DNA of 62,896 bases from Oligoflexales bacterium (GCA_045105515.1 JBGCDR010000138.1:1-62896); one strand, 5' to 3'. Numbered from the stretch's first letter, positions 1,226 to 10,679 are shown. A program made the numbers and translations. The notes: generated by a model not told the origin, from the letters alone.

Positions 1226-1705
1226 GAATTTTATTTGAACCTCTTTTGAATTGATCGACAAGAAACGACAAGAAACTGAGTTTCTTTGGAAGAAAAAACC
1301 CTCTGGATAGAATATGCACCATGTAGGTTTTAAAAATCATGTTAAAATCAAAATACTGTAGATATACCTTTTTATCGCCATGCTTTTAAGAAAGCTTTCT
1401 TTCTCCTTTTTTTCCGCCGCACTAGTATTGGAGCGAGATATTTTTTAATTGCATCTCGATCCTCATAAAAAGTAGCACAAGGAAGAAGTCGAAATATTGG
1501 TACAACGAGAGAACTATTAATGACAAACCAGTTAAGGAAAGTTTTGTTGTCCATTGACTAAATAGAGCTAATATCTCTGATTTTGCCTCGATGTCATAGA
1601 TAAATATAGGTAGTTTTATGTATCTATTAAGCTGGCAACGATTTGAACTACAATTTGAACAGGAAGAAATTCTTCCAAAAAACTATAAAGGCTGGGTATA
1701 AAAAT

Positions 1706-2178
1706 ATGAAGGGACTAAAAGATACCCCTGAGGACTTCGAAATAAATAAAAAAGCTGCCCAAGATCTGCTGGTAGAATTAGGTGAGGTCGAGGCTTTACA
1801 AACTGCGTTTTAATAATAGAAGATGACAAAGTTGCCTCTAAGTTGTTAGAAAAACTCGTTACAAAAATGAAATATAGAGTGCGTACCTATGAAGACCCCA
1901 TCCTAGGACTTGCAGATGCAAAAAATTATATAGTTGAACTTCTATTTTTAGATATTAAATTGCCAAATATGAATGGCTTGGATTTCCTAAAAGCTCTTAG
2001 AAAGATTCAGGAAAATCCTGATTTTCCTGTGGTAGTTATGACAGGATACACTCAAAAAGAGATGGTGCAAGAAATAATGAAACATAATATTAACGGATTG
2101 TTAGCAAAACCAGTAGACTTGAAAAGAGCGATTAGCTATCTCAAAACTCTTGGCGGAAATGCACTAAATAACTCTTAG
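1706..2178 (+). pseudogene. Response regulator receiver protein, split by a probable 1-nt frameshift near 1800
   Basis: The receiver N-terminus (CVLIIEDDK) lies in frame upstream of the called TTG at 1843 with no start codon; FLDIKLP, MTG and KP motifs are present. The ATG-1706 ORF joins it if one A is added at caaac (~1800). Confidence 0.6.
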
Positions 2179-2349
2179 TTAAGCAAATAATAGAACATTT
2201 TTTCAACTAAAGACAATAACAATATTCAATTTGAGATTTTTTTATGAATGTGAGCAGTGAAGAAAACAAAGAGAAGCCAGATAAATTTTATCAGACTTTC
2301 GCATGAATAAATACAAGAAAATCAACACATTTAGCCTCAACAGATCCCG

Positions 2350-2559
2350 ATGGGACTTTTTGCTTTATCCAAAAATGCTGTAAATATTTGGTCTCTCAAA
2401 TCTGATCTTGCTGCGATGGGACCAACGGAAAAATTTCGAGTTCTACTATTAGGAGCTAGTTTTGACACTCGGTTTTATCGATTTAAAGAAATGGTTCCTA
2501 ACAATGTCCAGCTTGTGGAGGTATGCTACCTTATCCAGTATCAATACAATTTACCTTAA
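2350..2559 (+). pseudogene. Fragment of an LCM-type class I SAM methyltransferase
   Basis: VLLLGASFDTRFYRF resembles the LGAGxDTRxYR motif; only 69 aa. Confidence 0.5.
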
Positions 2560-2869
2560 AAAAAGTAAATTTTTAGTTCCATCTCTGTAAGTTTTAAGGA
2601 GAAATCAGCATGGAAATCCGAAATAAATTCTAATCCAACCAATAAGAAGTAACACCTTCACAAAAACTTCATTAGCAATAGCAAAAAAGTAATAAAGAGA
2701 CCTGGAAATACATGTTTTTTTGAGCCTTCTACCAAATTCCTTTTTAAATTTTAAAGCAGAAAAGTACTTACATCCTTCCATCAACTTTTACTTTTTTAAT
2801 CTGGAAACTACCTCCTAAATCTTATATAAGTTTTCATTCTTTTTTAACCTCCTTGATAAGGTAGTTTCG

Positions 2870-3403
2870 ATGCAAATCATAAAATCCATTGTTGTATTAG
2901 TTTTCCTAACTTTTTCTTTAAGCCCTAAGCTATATAGCGTTGACTGTTTAAGCTTTTTATCATGTACAGCCGGGACTTGTACCTGCGCTAGCGTAGTTCC
3001 ACAAGTTGTTGAAAATTGCCGTAAACAAAGTACCGAAGGTTTAGCCCTAAATCAAAGCGCTGCTGATGCAGCCGGTAATCTAGCATTAATATCGGTCATA
3101 CTTGCATCTCCTGTATCTGCACATGCTGCAATTGCTCCCTGTATTTCAGTTGCAGGCGATGCTGTCGTTCTTGCTCAAGCTTGGAAATATGATGAAAGAT
3201 GTTTTTGGCATGAATGGACCGAGCATTCCGAATATTTTGTTTATAAGTGCAATAGTTGCAGAGGATATGATCAAATTCTCAACAATAATGCTCCTACCAA
3301 TCAGGAAATAGAAAGACTGATTAAGCCATTAGAAAGACTGCCAGAAACAGAAAGTGATGATTCTGAAATTAGCGAAGATAGTTTGCATGCGACTCAACTC
3401 TAA
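2870..3403 (+). CDS. Secreted Cys-rich hypothetical protein
   Basis: Sec-type signal peptide, many Cys, acidic C-terminal tail. Confidence 0.7.
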   Translation: MQIIKSIVVLVFLTFSLSPKLYSVDCLSFLSCTAGTCTCASVVPQVVENCRKQSTEGLALNQSAADAAGNLALISVILASPVSAHAAIAPCISVAGDAVVLAQAWKYDERCFWHEWTEHSEYFVYKCNSCRGYDQILNNNAPTNQEIERLIKPLERLPETESDDSEISEDSLHATQL

Positions 3404-5245: not shown

Positions 5246-6451
5246 ATGAATATAGACTATTATTATAGGAATTTAATCGAATATCAAGAAATATTAAATA
5301 AGCAGGAATCTATTAAAAAACTTACTAAAAGCGCTTCTAGTTTCCTAGGCACAGTTACAAAATGTCAAGGAATTTGGTTTCTGATCTATAACCCGCCAAA
5401 AATCCATGCCATTGAAATCTATCAAAATGGAAATCACGAAATTAAATTACATAGTGAGGAAAATCTGCAGAAATATTCTGTTTTAAGTGAAAGTAAATTT
5501 CTCACCTTTAATGAGGGTAGTCCGATCCTCGATTGGATAAATCCTCACAACGGATCTCGATATGCATATGCATGTTCTTCAAGCTTACTAGGATATGGAT
5601 GCAGGATTGCCTACTTTTATGATGATCTTGACAAGCAAAAATCCGACCCAGTTGTTACCCATTTTGCAAATTTTTTCCTTACGAAATTCGCATATATTTT
5701 AAAAGTCGAAAACCTTCTCGATGAAAAAGAAAAAATGACAGAAGAAATAAGATTAAGAAATCGCATTCTATGTCACGATCTCAGCAATTATATTATGAAA
5801 ATAAGGATCACATCAATTAAAGGACAAAAAGAACTTGTCCATGAAGAAAACGTTAAGATGTGGAATAAAGTAGCAAGAATTGCCAAAAACCAAGCCGAAC
5901 TCGTAAAATACGTAAGAAATTTAGAAGCTCTTTCCTCAGGAAAAAAACAATATACTCTCGAACCTGTTTGTATTAGATCTTTAATTGAAGAAGCTAGTTT
6001 TTTATTTGAAGATACATTAAAAGAAAAAGATATCGAGATTGTACATACGATGAAGCAAGAAGAAGAATATTTAGTTCTTGCAGACAAGACCTCATTAAGC
6101 AATCAAGTCATAAATAATGTTATTTCTAATGCTATCAAATTTAGTCCCAAGAATAGCAAAATCACCATCAATTTTAACCAGACTAAGCCAGGAGAAATAA
6201 AACTGAGCATTATAGATCAAGGGATTGGAATGCCAGAAAAAATTAAAAATAACTTATTCTCATTCACAGATAAAACAACTCGTTCAGGTACCATGAACGA
6301 AAAAGGAACAGGGTTTGGCATGCCTCTAGTTAAAGCTTTTATGGATTCCTTTAATGGAAAAGTTGAAGTTGAGACCAAAGAAAAAAGTGATGAAAATGAT
6401 TTAGAACATGGGACCACCTTCCACCTCTTTTTTAAGGATGGGGCAATATAA
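5246..6451 (+). CDS. Cytoplasmic sensor histidine kinase
   Basis: H-box CHDLSN, N-box NVISNAIKF, DQGIG, GTGFGM. Confidence 0.9.
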   Translation: MNIDYYYRNLIEYQEILNKQESIKKLTKSASSFLGTVTKCQGIWFLIYNPPKIHAIEIYQNGNHEIKLHSEENLQKYSVLSESKFLTFNEGSPILDWINPHNGSRYAYACSSSLLGYGCRIAYFYDDLDKQKSDPVVTHFANFFLTKFAYILKVENLLDEKEKMTEEIRLRNRILCHDLSNYIMKIRITSIKGQKELVHEENVKMWNKVARIAKNQAELVKYVRNLEALSSGKKQYTLEPVCIRSLIEEASFLFEDTLKEKDIEIVHTMKQEEEYLVLADKTSLSNQVINNVISNAIKFSPKNSKITINFNQTKPGEIKLSIIDQGIGMPEKIKNNLFSFTDKTTRSGTMNEKGTGFGMPLVKAFMDSFNGKVEVETKEKSDENDLEHGTTFHLFFKDGAI

Positions 6452-6654
6452 GGAATAAGATGTTTGGGCTATAAACTTGATTATTCATTAGAGTGATTGC
6501 TCGGAATTTTTTACCGGTTACCAGAATCAAAAATTGAAATAGAATAATACATAGATACTCGTCAAACTATTTTTCTCCTATGGCTTGTCGTTTGACAAGC
6601 CAACTTTAAAACATCACGGTCTAAGCTACCATTCCACATAAAAGGAGCACTATT

Positions 6655-7032
6655 GTGGGCCAAACAGTAATGATAGTCGATGACTCGAAAACGATAAGAG
6701 TACAAATTAAGCATGTGATTAAATCTCAAGGATTTGAGATTATTGAGGCAAGCAATGGTGCTGAAGCTTTGGAGCTTTATAGAACTCACCAGGATAACGT
6801 GTTCATGATGTTTCTCGATATCAACATGCCGGTTATGAATGGGTTAGAAACTTTAGAAAAATTATCTGAGGACGAATCGTTAAAAATGCCTAACGTAGTT
6901 ATTCTGACCACTGAAGACTCTGCAAGCTATGTAGAAAAAGCCAAAAACTTTGGTGCAAAGGGTTGGATCGTCAAACCTTACAACACCGACAAACTCCTCT
7001 CAGCCGTAAAGCGTTTCGCCCCAGCTGCCTAA
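6655..7032 (+). CDS. CheY-like single-domain response regulator
   Basis: IVDDS, LDINMP, LTTE, KP; aaaggag RBS before the GTG. Confidence 0.9.
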   Translation: MGQTVMIVDDSKTIRVQIKHVIKSQGFEIIEASNGAEALELYRTHQDNVFMMFLDINMPVMNGLETLEKLSEDESLKMPNVVILTTEDSASYVEKAKNFGAKGWIVKPYNTDKLLSAVKRFAPAA

Positions 7033-7037
7033 TCCCA

Positions 7038-7649
7038 TTAATAACGATATTGTGGTTTCCGGCATTTTACTACCGAAGAATCTGAAAATCCGTAAGAGTT
7101 CGGAGACTTAAATACAAGCCCCTCAACCCAAGAGCGTTTGTCTTGAAGGACAGCTAAGCAATCATTGAGATTTTTTAAAACGGTGAGAATCTCAACATGA
7201 GGAGAGATGAAATCCCTAGGAATCATCTTAAAACGATCTCGATAGCAATGAGAAACAAGGATCTTATCATCCCTTTTTAGATAGTCGAAAACATATAGCT
7301 TTTGCTCTTTTTTCAACCATTCAACATCTAGCACCGACCAGCCTATCTGGGGTGTAAAAATTCGCCTTAATTCAACAACAATTGAAGAATCTAATTTCTT
7401 ACTGTGTATCTTGCCAGACCGCGTATAGGCAACGGGCTCGACATTAGGATCAGCATGCAAGTGAATTTGTGCACGATGGCCATGTATTTTAGTTTGTCCC
7501 CACCACCCAAGATTTAACACTTTCTCAATAGACGGGGGGTCAGGGTTAATCTCAGTCTTTGGATGAATAGGCCTAATAAAAGCTGGAAGTTGCATCTTTT
7601 TCTTTCTTTGTAACAGCGACCATCCCATACGCATATTCCCTTTCAACAA
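7038..7649 (-). CDS. Stand-alone ATP-dependent polynucleotide ligase nucleotidyltransferase domain (no OB fold)
   Basis: Motif I TKIHGHR, III LDVEW, IIIa VFDYL, IV EGLVFK, V VKCRK at the C-terminus. Confidence 0.75.
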   Translation of the reverse strand: MLKGNMRMGWSLLQRKKKMQLPAFIRPIHPKTEINPDPPSIEKVLNLGWWGQTKIHGHRAQIHLHADPNVEPVAYTRSGKIHSKKLDSSIVVELRRIFTPQIGWSVLDVEWLKKEQKLYVFDYLKRDDKILVSHCYRDRFKMIPRDFISPHVEILTVLKNLNDCLAVLQDKRSWVEGLVFKSPNSYGFSDSSVVKCRKPQYRY

Positions 7650-7709
7650 ATAAAAAAAGGGTTATATTACACGGATGGATACTTTGCTAGTTTCTCTTTA
7701 TCTCTTAGA

Positions 7710-8315
7710 CTATTTGATATAGTTTTTTATCTTCAGTTGCTTCATAAGCTCCAAAAATTCTTCAGGAGTTTTTGTGAACTGAGTGAGTTTCTCCAAAGCA
7801 CCAGGAGCTGCTTTCATGAGCATCGGCTTAAAAAGATTATCGAGAATTTCCTCCGGCAAAACTTGCAGTGCATCAACAATCTGATCATAATGCTGTTCAA
7901 GAACTTTTGGATCAAACTTAATACTAGAAAAATCCTTATTGATAAGCTCGCTTGCTGCATTTTCTCCCCATCTTCCCTCAAATTCATGAAGTTCTTCTTC
8001 TGTTAATCCTGCACTTGAATTCTGTACCACATAGTGCACCATAGATTCAGCACCGAGAACCTTAAAAGATGAAGTTTGTCCTGAAACAGCTTTCTTACTG
8101 TATTCAGCTTGGCAATAGTTTAATACTGAATCTTTATAAATGGTTGCCTCCCCTTCAAAATGCTTGGCTTGTTCTTGCTTCTCACGAAAGCTATCAATTG
8201 CCTCCATAATTTCATCAGGTGGAGATAGGGGCTCAGCTCCAGCAGTGGCTTTTGATTTTGTCTTTCTAGTTTTAAAAGGGTCAATTTTCTTCTTCTTTTC
8301 ACCAGCCATTAGCAT
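7710..8315 (-). CDS. Hypothetical protein, possibly Mu Gam-like DNA end-binding
   Basis: Basic N-tail, helical segment, then VLNYCQAE...GQTSSFKVLG...VHY; lies between ligD and the ligase gene. Confidence 0.55.
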   Translation of the reverse strand: MLMAGEKKKKIDPFKTRKTKSKATAGAEPLSPPDEIMEAIDSFREKQEQAKHFEGEATIYKDSVLNYCQAEYSKKAVSGQTSSFKVLGAESMVHYVVQNSSAGLTEEELHEFEGRWGENAASELINKDFSSIKFDPKVLEQHYDQIVDALQVLPEEILDNLFKPMLMKAAPGALEKLTQFTKTPEEFLELMKQLKIKNYIK

Positions 8316-8396
8316 ACCTTTGTTAGAATTGAAGATTCTGGGTATTCTAAAGGCTCATCGGACGAAAGTGGCAGGTTCTCGACTAACAGAAGCGTT

Positions 8397-10679
8397 TTAT
8401 GCTACATTCTCCAAATTTTTTAGACATTCTTTGACATCAAATTGTACCTCAGTACTCGCATACCAGAGATCTCCAAGTTGGTTTAATCTTGATATCACGC
8501 TATTAATATTGAATTTTTTTGGATCTAGATCTTCATTGACCTCACTCCACCTTAAAGGAGTCGAAACAAGAGCACCGGGTACAGGCCTCACACAATAGAC
8601 AGAAGCAATGGTCTGCCCATGGTAGTTTTGCATATAATCTAAATAAATTTGATCTTTTCTTTTGCTTTTGGATCGCTCAATACTTGTCAGATTGGGCAAA
8701 CGTGCTACAGTAAGTTCACAAACTTTCTTGGCCAATGACCTTGCTTCGGTAAATGAATAATTTGGCACAATGGGAATCATGATATGTAGACCTCGCGATC
8801 CAGATGTCTTACAAAACCCTCGGATCTTGGCTTTATCGAGAATATCTCTTATGTGATTAGCCACTTCAACGATTTCTTGAAAATGATTACTCTCGCTTGG
8901 ATCCAAATCAATATAAACTTGATCAGGGCACTCAAGCTGCTCAGTTCTTGACATCCAAGGGTTCAATTCAATGCAGTACAGATTAGCTAGATACAACAAA
9001 CTATATTCGTTTTGACAGAGGGGGTAATTAATAAAACCTTTTTTTGCGGATTTGACCCTAATAGTCTTAAACCATGAAGGAATAAAGCCAGTTAAATCTT
9101 TTTGAAAAAAACTATCCCCCCTTATTCCTTTCGGATGTCTGTGCATCGATATAGGCCGATTCTTTATATATGGTAAGATTAAACCAGCTACAATCGCATA
9201 ATAATTAACAAGATCCTCTTTAGTATAAGCTTCATCTGGCCAAAGAACTTTTTTCAGTTGACTAATCAAAGGACCATTCTTAAATTGTATATTGTCAGTG
9301 CTGCGAAATTTTTCATATTGCATAGGTGTAAACTTAGGAGCACTCCAATTTTCTTCTTTTTCTAGTTTAAGCAAATCAGAGCTTGTATCAGACCGTTTAG
9401 TGTTCTCACTCGGAGATCTAGTTAAACAGCACTCGATCAAGCAAGATGAAACTCCTTTTTGGTATATACAATCTGCGTATTTTGCAAAATATTTAATTTC
9501 TCCTTGCAGATGCTGCTCTAATTCTTCTTGATGAATTTCAGGTTTTAATATGATATTTTCATCAAAGATATTTAAGCTCCTGAGCTGATTTAGTCGATAA
9601 TGGAAAGGCTTATTTCTTATATCCTCATTTTTATGAACCAAGAGATCAGTAATAAAGATCTTAATATTTCCTTGTTTAGTACGATGAAAGCTCCTTAATA
9701 ATTGTTGTGAAAGCTGCTGATTATTTTCATCAAAAACGGTAATTTCACATTCAAACACCAAGTCTTGAGAAATCTTACTAAGGTATGTAAAAGCGGGTTT
9801 AAAACTATCTTTATAAGATACCTTGCTATGGGAGTACATTCTCACATTTCCATTGTCAATGTGAGCAATTGCACGGTAACATGGGTTTTTTAAAAATAAT
9901 ATCCATGAAGAATCAAATTTATGCTTCGTACCAAGGATCGGATGCATCATCCCATAGTGAGACACACTCTTTGCTTCTTGGGAATCTCCACCCTGAGTTG
10001 CCACATCTTTTGTAGCTATTTTTGGCTGACTAAGAGTGACCACCAAGTCTTCTGCAGGCAAGGTATTTTTATCTGGTAGCCAAATATCTGTTTTTTCTTG
10101 TTTACTTAATTCTGCTAGACTCAGCCCTGACAATACTGACTTATTTTTCTCAAGGATATTTTCTCTATAGTCAGCAAGTTGATCTTGTTTTTTCATTAAC
10201 AACCAAGATCCTGAGTCTTTAAGCCGAATGAGCGCAAACTCTCCACAAAGTTTATGACCACTTAGTACGAAGGTTAGTCGACCTTTTTCAAAGCCTTTTA
10301 ACATCGCTAGCACACTATCCTCTCTGCCTTGGCTTGAGCGTTCAATATAGGTGCCTTGATCCCATAGTAAAACAGTTCCTGCCCCATAATTTCCAGGAGG
10401 AATTTTTCCTTCAAAGCGGCCATAAGCAAGAGGGTGATCCTCAACATGCACAGCCAAACGCTGATCCAAGGGGTTCAAACTTGGGCCTTTTGGCACGGCC
10501 CAGCTCTTTAGGCACCCAGCAAATTCGAGGCGGAAGTCGTAATGCATTCGTGTCGCAGCATGCTGCTGGATGAAAAACTTCAGCTGGCCAGAGGAAAATT
10601 CTAAGTCCCCTTGCGGTTCTGAGGTTTTACTAAAATCTCTTTTTTTATTGTACGCTTCTAGGTCTTTATCTTTGCTCAT
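8397..10679 (-). CDS. ligD: LigD-like protein: intact phosphoesterase + degenerate ligase + intact primase-polymerase
   Basis: PE: QQHAATRMHYDFRLE, KSWAVPKGPS, VEDHPLAY. Pol: IDLDP, KTSGSRGLH, YLDY. Ligase motifs decayed. Confidence 0.9.
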   Translation of the reverse strand: MSKDKDLEAYNKKRDFSKTSEPQGDLEFSSGQLKFFIQQHAATRMHYDFRLEFAGCLKSWAVPKGPSLNPLDQRLAVHVEDHPLAYGRFEGKIPPGNYGAGTVLLWDQGTYIERSSQGREDSVLAMLKGFEKGRLTFVLSGHKLCGEFALIRLKDSGSWLLMKKQDQLADYRENILEKNKSVLSGLSLAELSKQEKTDIWLPDKNTLPAEDLVVTLSQPKIATKDVATQGGDSQEAKSVSHYGMMHPILGTKHKFDSSWILFLKNPCYRAIAHIDNGNVRMYSHSKVSYKDSFKPAFTYLSKISQDLVFECEITVFDENNQQLSQQLLRSFHRTKQGNIKIFITDLLVHKNEDIRNKPFHYRLNQLRSLNIFDENIILKPEIHQEELEQHLQGEIKYFAKYADCIYQKGVSSCLIECCLTRSPSENTKRSDTSSDLLKLEKEENWSAPKFTPMQYEKFRSTDNIQFKNGPLISQLKKVLWPDEAYTKEDLVNYYAIVAGLILPYIKNRPISMHRHPKGIRGDSFFQKDLTGFIPSWFKTIRVKSAKKGFINYPLCQNEYSLLYLANLYCIELNPWMSRTEQLECPDQVYIDLDPSESNHFQEIVEVANHIRDILDKAKIRGFCKTSGSRGLHIMIPIVPNYSFTEARSLAKKVCELTVARLPNLTSIERSKSKRKDQIYLDYMQNYHGQTIASVYCVRPVPGALVSTPLRWSEVNEDLDPKKFNINSVISRLNQLGDLWYASTEVQFDVKECLKNLENVA

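Follow-up and report, generated by a model that had tools for sequence, protein, structure and literature searches.

A LigD-like gene with a predicted dead ligase domain and a putative two-protein ligase at a Ku-independent locus of Bdellovibrionota

Background

How can a LigD-type protein take part in DNA repair if its own ligase domain is apparently dead and no ku gene stands beside it? This question is raised by a locus at positions 7,038 to 10,679 of a 62,896-nucleotide stretch of DNA (the window; JBGCDR010000138.1) from the Oligoflexales bacterium assembly GCA_045105515.1. The minus strand of the window carries three co-oriented, intact open reading frames (ORFs): a LigD-like gene, a middle gene whose product is here called MID, and a gene for a stand-alone DNA-ligase adenylation domain, here called SLIG. 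A first-pass annotation of this DNA had read the three genes as a split end-joining system in which sealing was left to the small ligase and the middle protein might bind DNA ends. On the evidence below, we consider it somewhat better than an even guess that the locus is a Ku-independent, LigD-type repair operon in which sealing is carried out in trans by a two-protein ligase made up of MID and SLIG. Sealing has probably passed from LigD to the tiny ligase core SLIG, and the middle protein fits better as a partner of that core than as a substitute for Ku.

The LigD-like gene

The LigD-like gene (8397..10679, minus strand) is a single ORF of 760 amino acids in which Pfam and NCBIfam place, in order, a PE domain, the remnant of a ligase domain and a primase-polymerase (Pol) domain. 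MID (7710..8315, minus strand; 201 aa, with Met3 as the probable start) and SLIG (7038..7649, minus strand; 203 aa) follow it after gaps of 81 and approximately 60 bases, respectively. No terminator-like sites were found between the three genes, and promoter and terminator scans yielded fewer sites than shuffled sequences did, a result that is compatible with an operon yet gives no evidence for one.

The PE domain (approximately aa 1-194; 10098..10679, minus strand) matches LigD_N (PF13298) over residues 38-152 with an E value of 1.5e-39, and TIGR02777 with 199.3 bits against a cut-off of 144. Both of its catalytic strings, HAATRMHYDFRLE (aa 40-52) and VEDHPLAYGRFEG (aa 79-91), are preserved. 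When aligned to the solved PE structures 2lj6 and 3n9b (P. aeruginosa type), they match at each residue, and the His/His/Asp/Arg and His/Tyr catalytic residues of bacterial LigD are kept; the roles of these residues are described in the available part of PMC8656161. The Pol domain (aa 486-739; 8463..9224, minus strand) matches LigD_Prim-Pol (PF21686) over the same residues (E 6.4e-85) and TIGR02778 with 240 bits against a cut-off of 214.7. Alignment to 5dmu, the closest structure (E 1e-54), and to 5op0 and 2iru showed the strings DLD (aa 591-593), SGSRGLH and LDY to be intact, with the same residues in the solved Pol 5dmu; the Asp residues of the DxD string and a third Asp are those that we take to be catalytic. 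The ORFs, the family matches and the structure alignments thus bear out the first-pass description of three co-oriented genes and a LigD with intact PE and Pol domains.

The protein as a whole falls below the NCBIfam cut-offs for full-length LigD, scoring 520.8 against 895 for PRK05972, 291.7 against 373.2 for TIGR02776 and 367 against 989 for PRK09632. It holds the one LigD_Prim-Pol match of its own assembly. In each of the 27 plus-strand loci with both PE and Pol, a single ORF encodes the two domains.

The ligase remnant within the LigD-like protein

Between PE and Pol lies a remnant of the nucleotidyltransferase (NTase) domain of a ligase (approximately aa 243-418; 9426..9953, minus strand). 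The DNA_ligase_A_M (PF01068) match is confined to residues 267-370 (E 4.6e-6) and barely exceeds the threshold (26.9 bits, with 26.2 required), and TIGR02779 reaches 39 bits against a cut-off of 227.75. The motifs were compared by aligning the window LigD to a canonical 883-aa LigD encoded directly behind ku in a relative (genome G075). Motif I, KLDGVR in the canonical protein, is KNPCYR in the window; motif III, LDGEI, is FECEI; motif IV, EGLIAK, is FAKY with no E-G; and motif V, present in the canonical protein, falls in a gap. The OB fold, approximately 110 residues of canonical LigD, is gapped in all four of the trio-type LigDs that were aligned. The motif strings cited in the first-pass annotation are where it placed them (FLKNPCYR at aa 262-269, 9873-9896; VFECEI at aa 308-313, 9741-9758; IKYFAK from aa 395), and motif V and the OB fold are missing as it stated. 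Its account of motif I needs amending, in that the motif I Lys is still at the catalytic position in the window copy, with the D and G replaced by P and C. Residual activity from this Lys was considered and rejected, as P and C replace D and G, motifs III to V are lost, and only one other of 28 copies has the Lys.

Those 28 sequences comprise the PE-to-Pol stretch from 27 related loci and from the window. Their profile matches the ligase domain of M. tuberculosis LigD (1vs0) with an E value of 9.2e-21 over chain residues 9-180 of 310 only, which is the NTase part; a PDB search with the window's remnant as a single sequence gave a chance match only, so that the family profile was required. The catalytic Lys column holds K in two of the 28 (the window and locus L021) and F, L, Q, D, Y, A, H, N, E, V, R or a gap in the others, while the motif I Asp column holds D in four. 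Elsewhere the motifs are well kept: Gly in 27/28 and Arg in 26/28 for motif I, and D (26/28), G (27/28), E (24/28) and I (24/28) for motif III. Because the catalytic Lys survives in only two copies, the remnant is an old pseudo-domain conserved across the clade and not the product of fresh decay, which amends the first-pass description of the domain as decayed. These comparisons support the conclusion that the LigD ligase module is catalytically dead and without an OB fold. The window copy is the most divergent of the 28: in the core its identity to the remaining copies is 24%, whereas those copies share 36% with one another. It is also the only one in which both conserved Gly positions are occupied by Cys.

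In two lineages the remnant is reduced to a linker of approximately 60 residues: L025 (= G012, of the window's own family) and L052. In G012, the relative whose LigD lost the dead ligase domain outright, a pretoxin-HINT/intein-splicing ORF (PF07591, E 2.8e-14) was observed on contig C2 (L015; 5163-5951, plus strand), approximately 600 bases upstream of the PE-Pol gene.

SLIG, a stand-alone adenylation core

SLIG passes the Pfam cut-offs of both DNA_ligase_A_M (PF01068; 29.7 bits, cut-off 26.2) and RNA_ligase (PF09414; 27.4 bits, cut-off 27). Read against the motif consensus strings of the covalent nucleotidyltransferases, it has motifs I (KIHGHR), III (DVEW), IIIa (FD), IV (EGLVFK) and V (VKCRK), and the predicted AMP-accepting residue is Lys54 (codon 7488-7490). 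SLIG homologues are 165-220 aa long. Across an alignment of 41 of them, residues K54, G57, R77/G79, E110/W111, F121, D122 and E176-G177-L178 do not vary, and D108 and V179 hardly do. Motif V is VKCRK in the window and mostly RCRK in the family, with R or K at 195 and 197.

The AlphaFold (AF2) model of SLIG (pLDDT 92.3, pTM 0.85) was compared to the PDB using Foldseek, and its first matches are NTase domains of DNA ligases: that of human LigIV (6bkg; E 1.6e-11, TMq 0.65, 21% identity), followed by those of Lig1, Lig3 and archaeal ligases. By sequence profile SLIG barely matches solved ligases (best 3qwu, E 3e-4; Lig1, E 1e-3). Since its profile is also distant from LigD's own ligase, SLIG did not split off from LigD recently. 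The protein is basic (pI 9.8), lacks an OB fold (motif VI) and a DNA-binding domain, and stops approximately five residues past motif V, the last structural element of the model being a strand at 193-197. The sequence thus supports a complete adenylation active site in a separate gene. The 'intact ligase' of the first-pass annotation has all the NTase motifs that were claimed for it, but it is an NTase core alone, and because the OB fold is lacking 'intact adenylation core' is the more apt description.

Many SLIG homologues start with a conserved peptide (consensus like L-P-G-I-F-E-x-T-I-F-S, within the N-terminal 15-25 residues), which may be a docking motif. The window's SLIG has diverged at this peptide (7580-7649), and its true start codon is uncertain.

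Conservation and distribution of the trio

Loci were scanned in one genome per species, with neighbours located by tblastn, giving 38 MID loci. By their record titles nearly all of these are Bdellovibrionota-type metagenome-assembled genomes, named as Silvanigrellales, Oligoflexales, Bdellovibrionales, Bacteriovoracia, Pseudobdellovibrionaceae or under older 'delta/Proteobacteria' labels. MID has SLIG on its 3' side, in the same orientation, in 37 of the 38, and the contig of the remaining one ends inside MID; the two genes are within approximately 400 bases of each other in 35 loci and approximately 0.9 kb apart in two. Upstream DNA is available for 35 loci, and 32 of these have LigD Pol there in the same orientation, accompanied by PE wherever the contig reaches that far; one locus (L050, of genome G039) has no LigD there. 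The linkage among relatives that the first-pass annotation looked for is therefore present, and the trio is a conserved operon of Bdellovibrionota. In a phylum set of 131 genomes MID was found in 18, with SLIG beside or near it in every one and LigD Pol in 17. The exception is G039 (96% complete), where MID and SLIG are present and no LigD Pol match was found.

Of the 35 loci with DNA beyond SLIG, 17 have a DUF72 gene after it. This gene was not found in the window's genome and is therefore not part of the window's copy. An insert of approximately 0.9 kb separates MID and SLIG in a few genomes (L046, 5579-6485; L054, 2325-3191; G046, contig C399; G047, contig C202). In a relative of the same family (G010, contig C342, L018) a 551-aa protein is encoded directly after SLIG (1661-3316, plus strand). 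It combines a Ser/Thr protein kinase domain (E 2e-38) with a cyclin N-terminal domain (PF00134, E 6.3e-10), an eukaryote-like combination unusual in a bacterium.

Relation to Ku

The window contains no ku gene, as the first-pass annotation had observed, and a search of the whole assembly was likewise empty: there were no matches to PF02735, none at E <= 1 to a Ku profile built from relatives, no second LigD Pol and no further PF01068 match. A canonical Ku with an intact LigD was thus not found elsewhere in this assembly (6.29 Mb in 461 contigs, 90.9% complete).

Relatives that do have Ku show how the two systems are related. In the phylum set Ku was found in nine genomes, MID in 18 and both in five. 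In all five of the latter, Ku lies less than 3 kb from a second LigD Pol match and the trio is elsewhere. That second match is within an ORF of 793-883 aa in four of the genomes and split over two short frames in G066; the Ku-linked LigD that was read through (883 aa) is canonical, with KLDGVR, LDGEI, EGLIAK and an OB region. Among 10 further trio genomes Ku was found in one, 575 kb from the trio, which brings the total to six of 28 trio genomes with Ku and 22 of 28 in which it was not found. Because Ku, wherever it is present, comes with a LigD of its own, the trio is a distinct system that is independent of Ku and not a rewired form of non-homologous end joining (NHEJ). Of the three-component, non-canonical repair system first proposed, the linkage of the genes stands; the coexistence of Ku-LigD in five of the 18 trio genomes of the phylum set sets the trio apart as a system of its own.

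MID and its association with SLIG

MID matched no family in Pfam or NCBIfam. Relatives numbering 367 were found among the searched candidates, at approximately 60% identity and with the nearest 86% identical; where they have names these are 'hypothetical protein', and their NCBI records are tagged Bdellovibrionota-type. The family forms 103 clusters at 50% identity and reaches down to approximately 20% identity, nearly all members being about 200 aa long; the exceptions are two long proteins and a number of fragments. Conservation within the trio is highest for MID (mean pairwise identity 68%, as against 52% for SLIG). Its N-terminal tail is basic, with invariant P13, F14, K15 and K18 in a peptide at aa 11-20 (P-F-K...K), its body is acidic alpha/beta (pI 5.5 for the protein), and its C-terminus is KIKNYIK in the window and K-x-K-N-Y-I-R/K in the family.

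The AF2 model of MID has a pLDDT of 81 and a pTM of 0.66. Searches with this whole-chain model, of only that pTM, gave a best E value of 2.1 in the PDB (Foldseek) and a best Z of 3.3 among 48,161 chains (VIA-align), with no Ku or Gam chain listed. In BFVD the best match was an unnamed viral protein (E 8.4e-3), and the MID profile against PDB sequences gave a best E value of 0.26. When 67 MID members were compared to Pfam, only sub-threshold matches were seen: DUF7376 in 12/67 (best E 4.2e-4), DUF7307 in 4/67 and Mu_Gam/Sipho_Gp157-TOTE in 2/67 (E 0.034). The 15 most distant members matched none of DUF7376, DUF7307 and Mu_Gam, giving two unrelated faint matches (E 0.0075-0.03). In PHROGs, phrog_2362 was matched by 5/67 members (best E 7.2e-4) and not by the window's MID. 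The Atlas clusters nearest to MID (unnamed viral clusters, 0.95-0.96; DUF7307 'Pam3 gp33-like', 0.92) were rejected as relatives since no alignment confirmed them, and the literature on Pam3 gp33 held nothing usable for MID. In one long protein, P0343 (1156 aa), five tandem repeats of approximately 65 residues are each weakly like MID residues 38-116 (E 5e-4 overall); they could be a chance likeness or be built from the MID helical hairpin.

A distant MID, P0337 (24% identical), shows that the pair also exists apart from LigD. It is encoded on a 6.4-kb, phage-like metagenome contig (L061) and is followed after 8 bases by a SLIG homologue of 205 aa, which matches the SLIG profile with an hhalign probability of 99.9 (E 9.3e-34), keeps the motif I Lys and scores higher with RNA_ligase (E 2.9e-8) than with DNA_ligase_A_M. 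No PE or Pol lies beside this pair, and a SprT-like protein of 1435 aa is encoded next to it. The same sample yielded a 23-kb contig (L062) that ends in a 95% identical MID start and carries a head-tail adaptor gene (phrog_211, E 9.1e-14) and a 2'-5' RNA-ligase-like gene.

A complex of MID and SLIG was predicted with a median ipSAE of 0.56 (runs 0.55, 0.59 and 0.56), the best of three controls scoring 0.00; at least 73% of contacts agreed between runs, and partner pLDDT was at least 73. Among 157 solved complexes 116 attained the mark applied, as did 2 of 215 mismatched pairs, counts that are only rough here as custom alignments were used. The complex prediction that the first-pass annotation had pointed to is therefore in hand, and it lends weak support to binding between the two proteins.

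Could MID instead be an end-binding or synapsis factor that replaces Ku, with the LigD-like protein processing ends and SLIG sealing double-strand breaks, making up a true three-component end-joining system? Ku was not found in most trio genomes, MID is the best conserved member of the trio, and its basic tail with an invariant peptide is as expected of a DNA- or partner-binding arm; Mu Gam is Ku-like, and a faint match to it was seen in the MID family. That match is far under any threshold, however. The MID profile (67 sequences) compared with a Ku profile (four sequences from relatives) gave an hhalign probability of 0.3%, the whole-chain model gave no fold match, to Ku or otherwise, the body is acidic, and where the module is split (G039, L061) MID stays with SLIG and not with LigD. 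Because it accompanies SLIG in places where LigD is absent, MID is better regarded as a ligase partner than as a Ku substitute, and its lack of profile likeness to Ku and its acidity argue in the same direction. The suggestion that the middle gene supplies end binding was thus not upheld, and the end-joining system built on it appears unlikely.

A similarly improbable explanation is that MID and SLIG form a mobile unit of phage origin that serves a separate purpose, for example as a ligase of RNA or other polynucleotides or as an adenylyltransferase, and lie beside LigD for convenience, or that MID is a regulator or DNA-mimic inhibitor of SLIG. The RNA_ligase match of SLIG and the preference of its L061 homologue for that family would fit, as would the pair without LigD beside the SprT-like protein, the phage-type genes of the sister contig, the viral Atlas clusters (although no alignment confirmed these) and the pairing of an acidic MID with a basic SLIG. 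The phage link, however, comes from a single pair of metagenome contigs, L061 and L062. No match was found to MID, SLIG or the distant MID in 50,697 GenBank phage records by tblastn, and no relatives turned up in IMG/VR when it was scanned with two distant MIDs and with each of the two family alignments. The broad alignment was too divergent for a pattern search. The first structural matches of SLIG are to DNA ligases, and a same-strand linkage to LigD in 32/35 loci across several orders, together with loss of the LigD ligase in all, is hard to explain without coupling.

That the locus is a decaying, functionless remnant in the window's genome is very improbable: the window pseudo-ligase is indeed the most divergent of its family and related genomes hold copies that are broken (G089) or reduced to remnants with stop codons (G007, G014), but here all three ORFs are intact, the catalytic strings of PE and Pol and every SLIG motif are conserved, and MID is 86% identical to its nearest relatives.

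Neighbouring features of the window

Two plus-strand genes at 5246-7032, which converge on the 3' end of SLIG, encode a 401-aa histidine kinase and a 125-aa single-domain response regulator. Their position next to the module is not kept in relatives. Between 24001 and 28000 the G+C content rises up to 0.46-0.47, compared to approximately 0.36-0.40 in the rest of the window.

Proposed mechanism

In the repair operon that we favour, the PE domain of the LigD-like protein would heal 3' ends and the Pol domain would fill or extend them, with the central ligase module a non-catalytic vestige and at most a scaffold. SLIG would be adenylylated on Lys54, pass the AMP to a 5' phosphate and seal in trans, while MID would take the place of the OB fold and the DNA-binding domain that the SLIG core is without. 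The basic N-terminal peptide of MID is a possible tether of this core to the LigD-like protein or to DNA. The MID-SLIG pair may be an older, self-contained unit that was recruited beside LigD, the ligase of LigD itself having died afterwards or in the meantime. The substrate could be double-strand ends or, by analogy with mycobacterial LigC/Prim-PolC, nicks and short gaps whose 3' ends are damaged. More tentatively, and at rather less than even confidence, we suggest that MID and SLIG constitute a new class of heterodimeric, ATP-dependent DNA ligase, in which a partner of novel fold completes a bare adenylation core in place of the OB and DNA-binding domains that every ligase core has in published classifications, and that this ligase came from a phage or other mobile source, displaced the ligase of LigD in Bdellovibrionota and serves Ku-independent repair of breaks or gaps in parallel to Ku-LigD NHEJ.

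Several observations weigh against the proposal of a LigD-type operon sealed by MID and SLIG. Most SLIG homologues have R-x-R and not K-x-K in motif V, and an NTase core without an OB fold may self-adenylylate poorly. The MID-SLIG complex scores in a weak band, with only 18 of the 157 solved complexes, and both of the mismatched pairs that passed, at 0.60 or under. No fusion of MID to a ligase was seen among the longer MID-containing proteins, although this is weak evidence, and, because MID has no recognisable fold or family, its role is read from context alone. Coupling to LigD is not obligatory, since MID and SLIG occur without it in G039 and L061, and the LigD gene is divergent in two of the 35 loci (L022, L051). 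As the ligase remnant was deleted in two lineages (L025 = G012, and L052), it is dispensable, including for any scaffold role. The absence of Ku from the window's genome is not proven, because the assembly is 91% complete (90.9%), in 461 contigs and with 4.8% contamination.

The distribution of the module is a further point on this side. It is patchy, being present in 18 of the 131 genomes and not found in a genome of the same genus (G001), and it is visibly decaying in three others. In G089 (contig C70, 16207-19664) SLIG has an in-frame TGA and Pol is split over two frames, and an intact Ku-LigD locus is also present. Only short SLIG or Pol fragments are seen in G014 (C5:72244-72471, with four stop codons) and in G007 (C50:6864-6956 and C86:3879-4169).

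If a conserved NTase-only core always paired with one partner is confirmed, it would represent an alternative ligase architecture, compact and possibly of use as a tool, and LigD-type end processing would be separable from Ku as well as from the ligase of LigD itself. Surveys in which domain content decides whether a genome counts as 'LigD only' or 'NHEJ-minus', of the kind described in the available part of PMC7719229, would misread the trio genomes. The LigD ligase domain, apparently dead and still conserved, would also offer a clean natural case of a pseudo-enzyme domain, whose inactivation can be dated relative to the appearance of its replacement.

Comparison with known systems

In the full-text literature, supplements aside, we found no LigD with a dead internal ligase, no NTase-only ligase with a dedicated partner and no MID family, and the available parts of PMC8656161, PMC7470946, PMC7824862 and PMC7719229 describe none of these. 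The nearest relative by architecture is the PE-LIG-POL LigD of Ku-LigD NHEJ (P. aeruginosa type; PRK05972, TIGR02776), which has the same domain order and the same catalytic PE and Pol residues, and from whose LIG NTase the central domain of the window protein derives (1vs0, E 9.2e-21). The two differ in that the LIG of the window protein is predicted to be dead, has no OB fold and leaves the protein below both full-length NCBIfam cut-offs. At the level of the system, the search for Ku was negative in 22/28 trio genomes, MID and SLIG are always attached, and Ku-LigD, where it occurs, is a separate locus.

The split NHEJ sets of archaea, in which Pol, PE, Lig and Ku each have a gene, resemble the trio in having the functions of LigD spread over several genes. 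The best PDB matches of the window Pol are 5dmu ('NHEJ Polymerase'), the nearest, and 5dmp, both of which we take to be from Methanocella paludicola, in keeping with PMC8656161. These archaeal sets keep Ku and a complete ligase, unlike the trio, and we know of no MID-like gene or dead ligase domain in them.

Minimal ATP-dependent ligases (Lig C, Lig E and viral enzymes) are, like SLIG, small accessory ligases with NTase motifs. According to the available part of PMC7470946, however, they have an NT plus OB core, as at the least do Lig B, C, D and E, whereas SLIG is NT only at 203 aa. A plausible nearest functional model for the trio, by analogy, is the mycobacterial LigC/Prim-PolC excision-repair complex, which the available part of PMC5663958 describes as an archaeo-eukaryotic primase (AEP) polymerase with a separate small ATP-dependent ligase, acting without Ku on damaged single-strand breaks. 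The resemblance has its bounds on both sides: LigC is a full NT+OB core (PMC7470946, available part), whereas SLIG is NT only and has MID as an obligatory partner, and the polymerase of the trio, unlike Prim-PolC, is fused to PE and to a LIG domain that appears dead.

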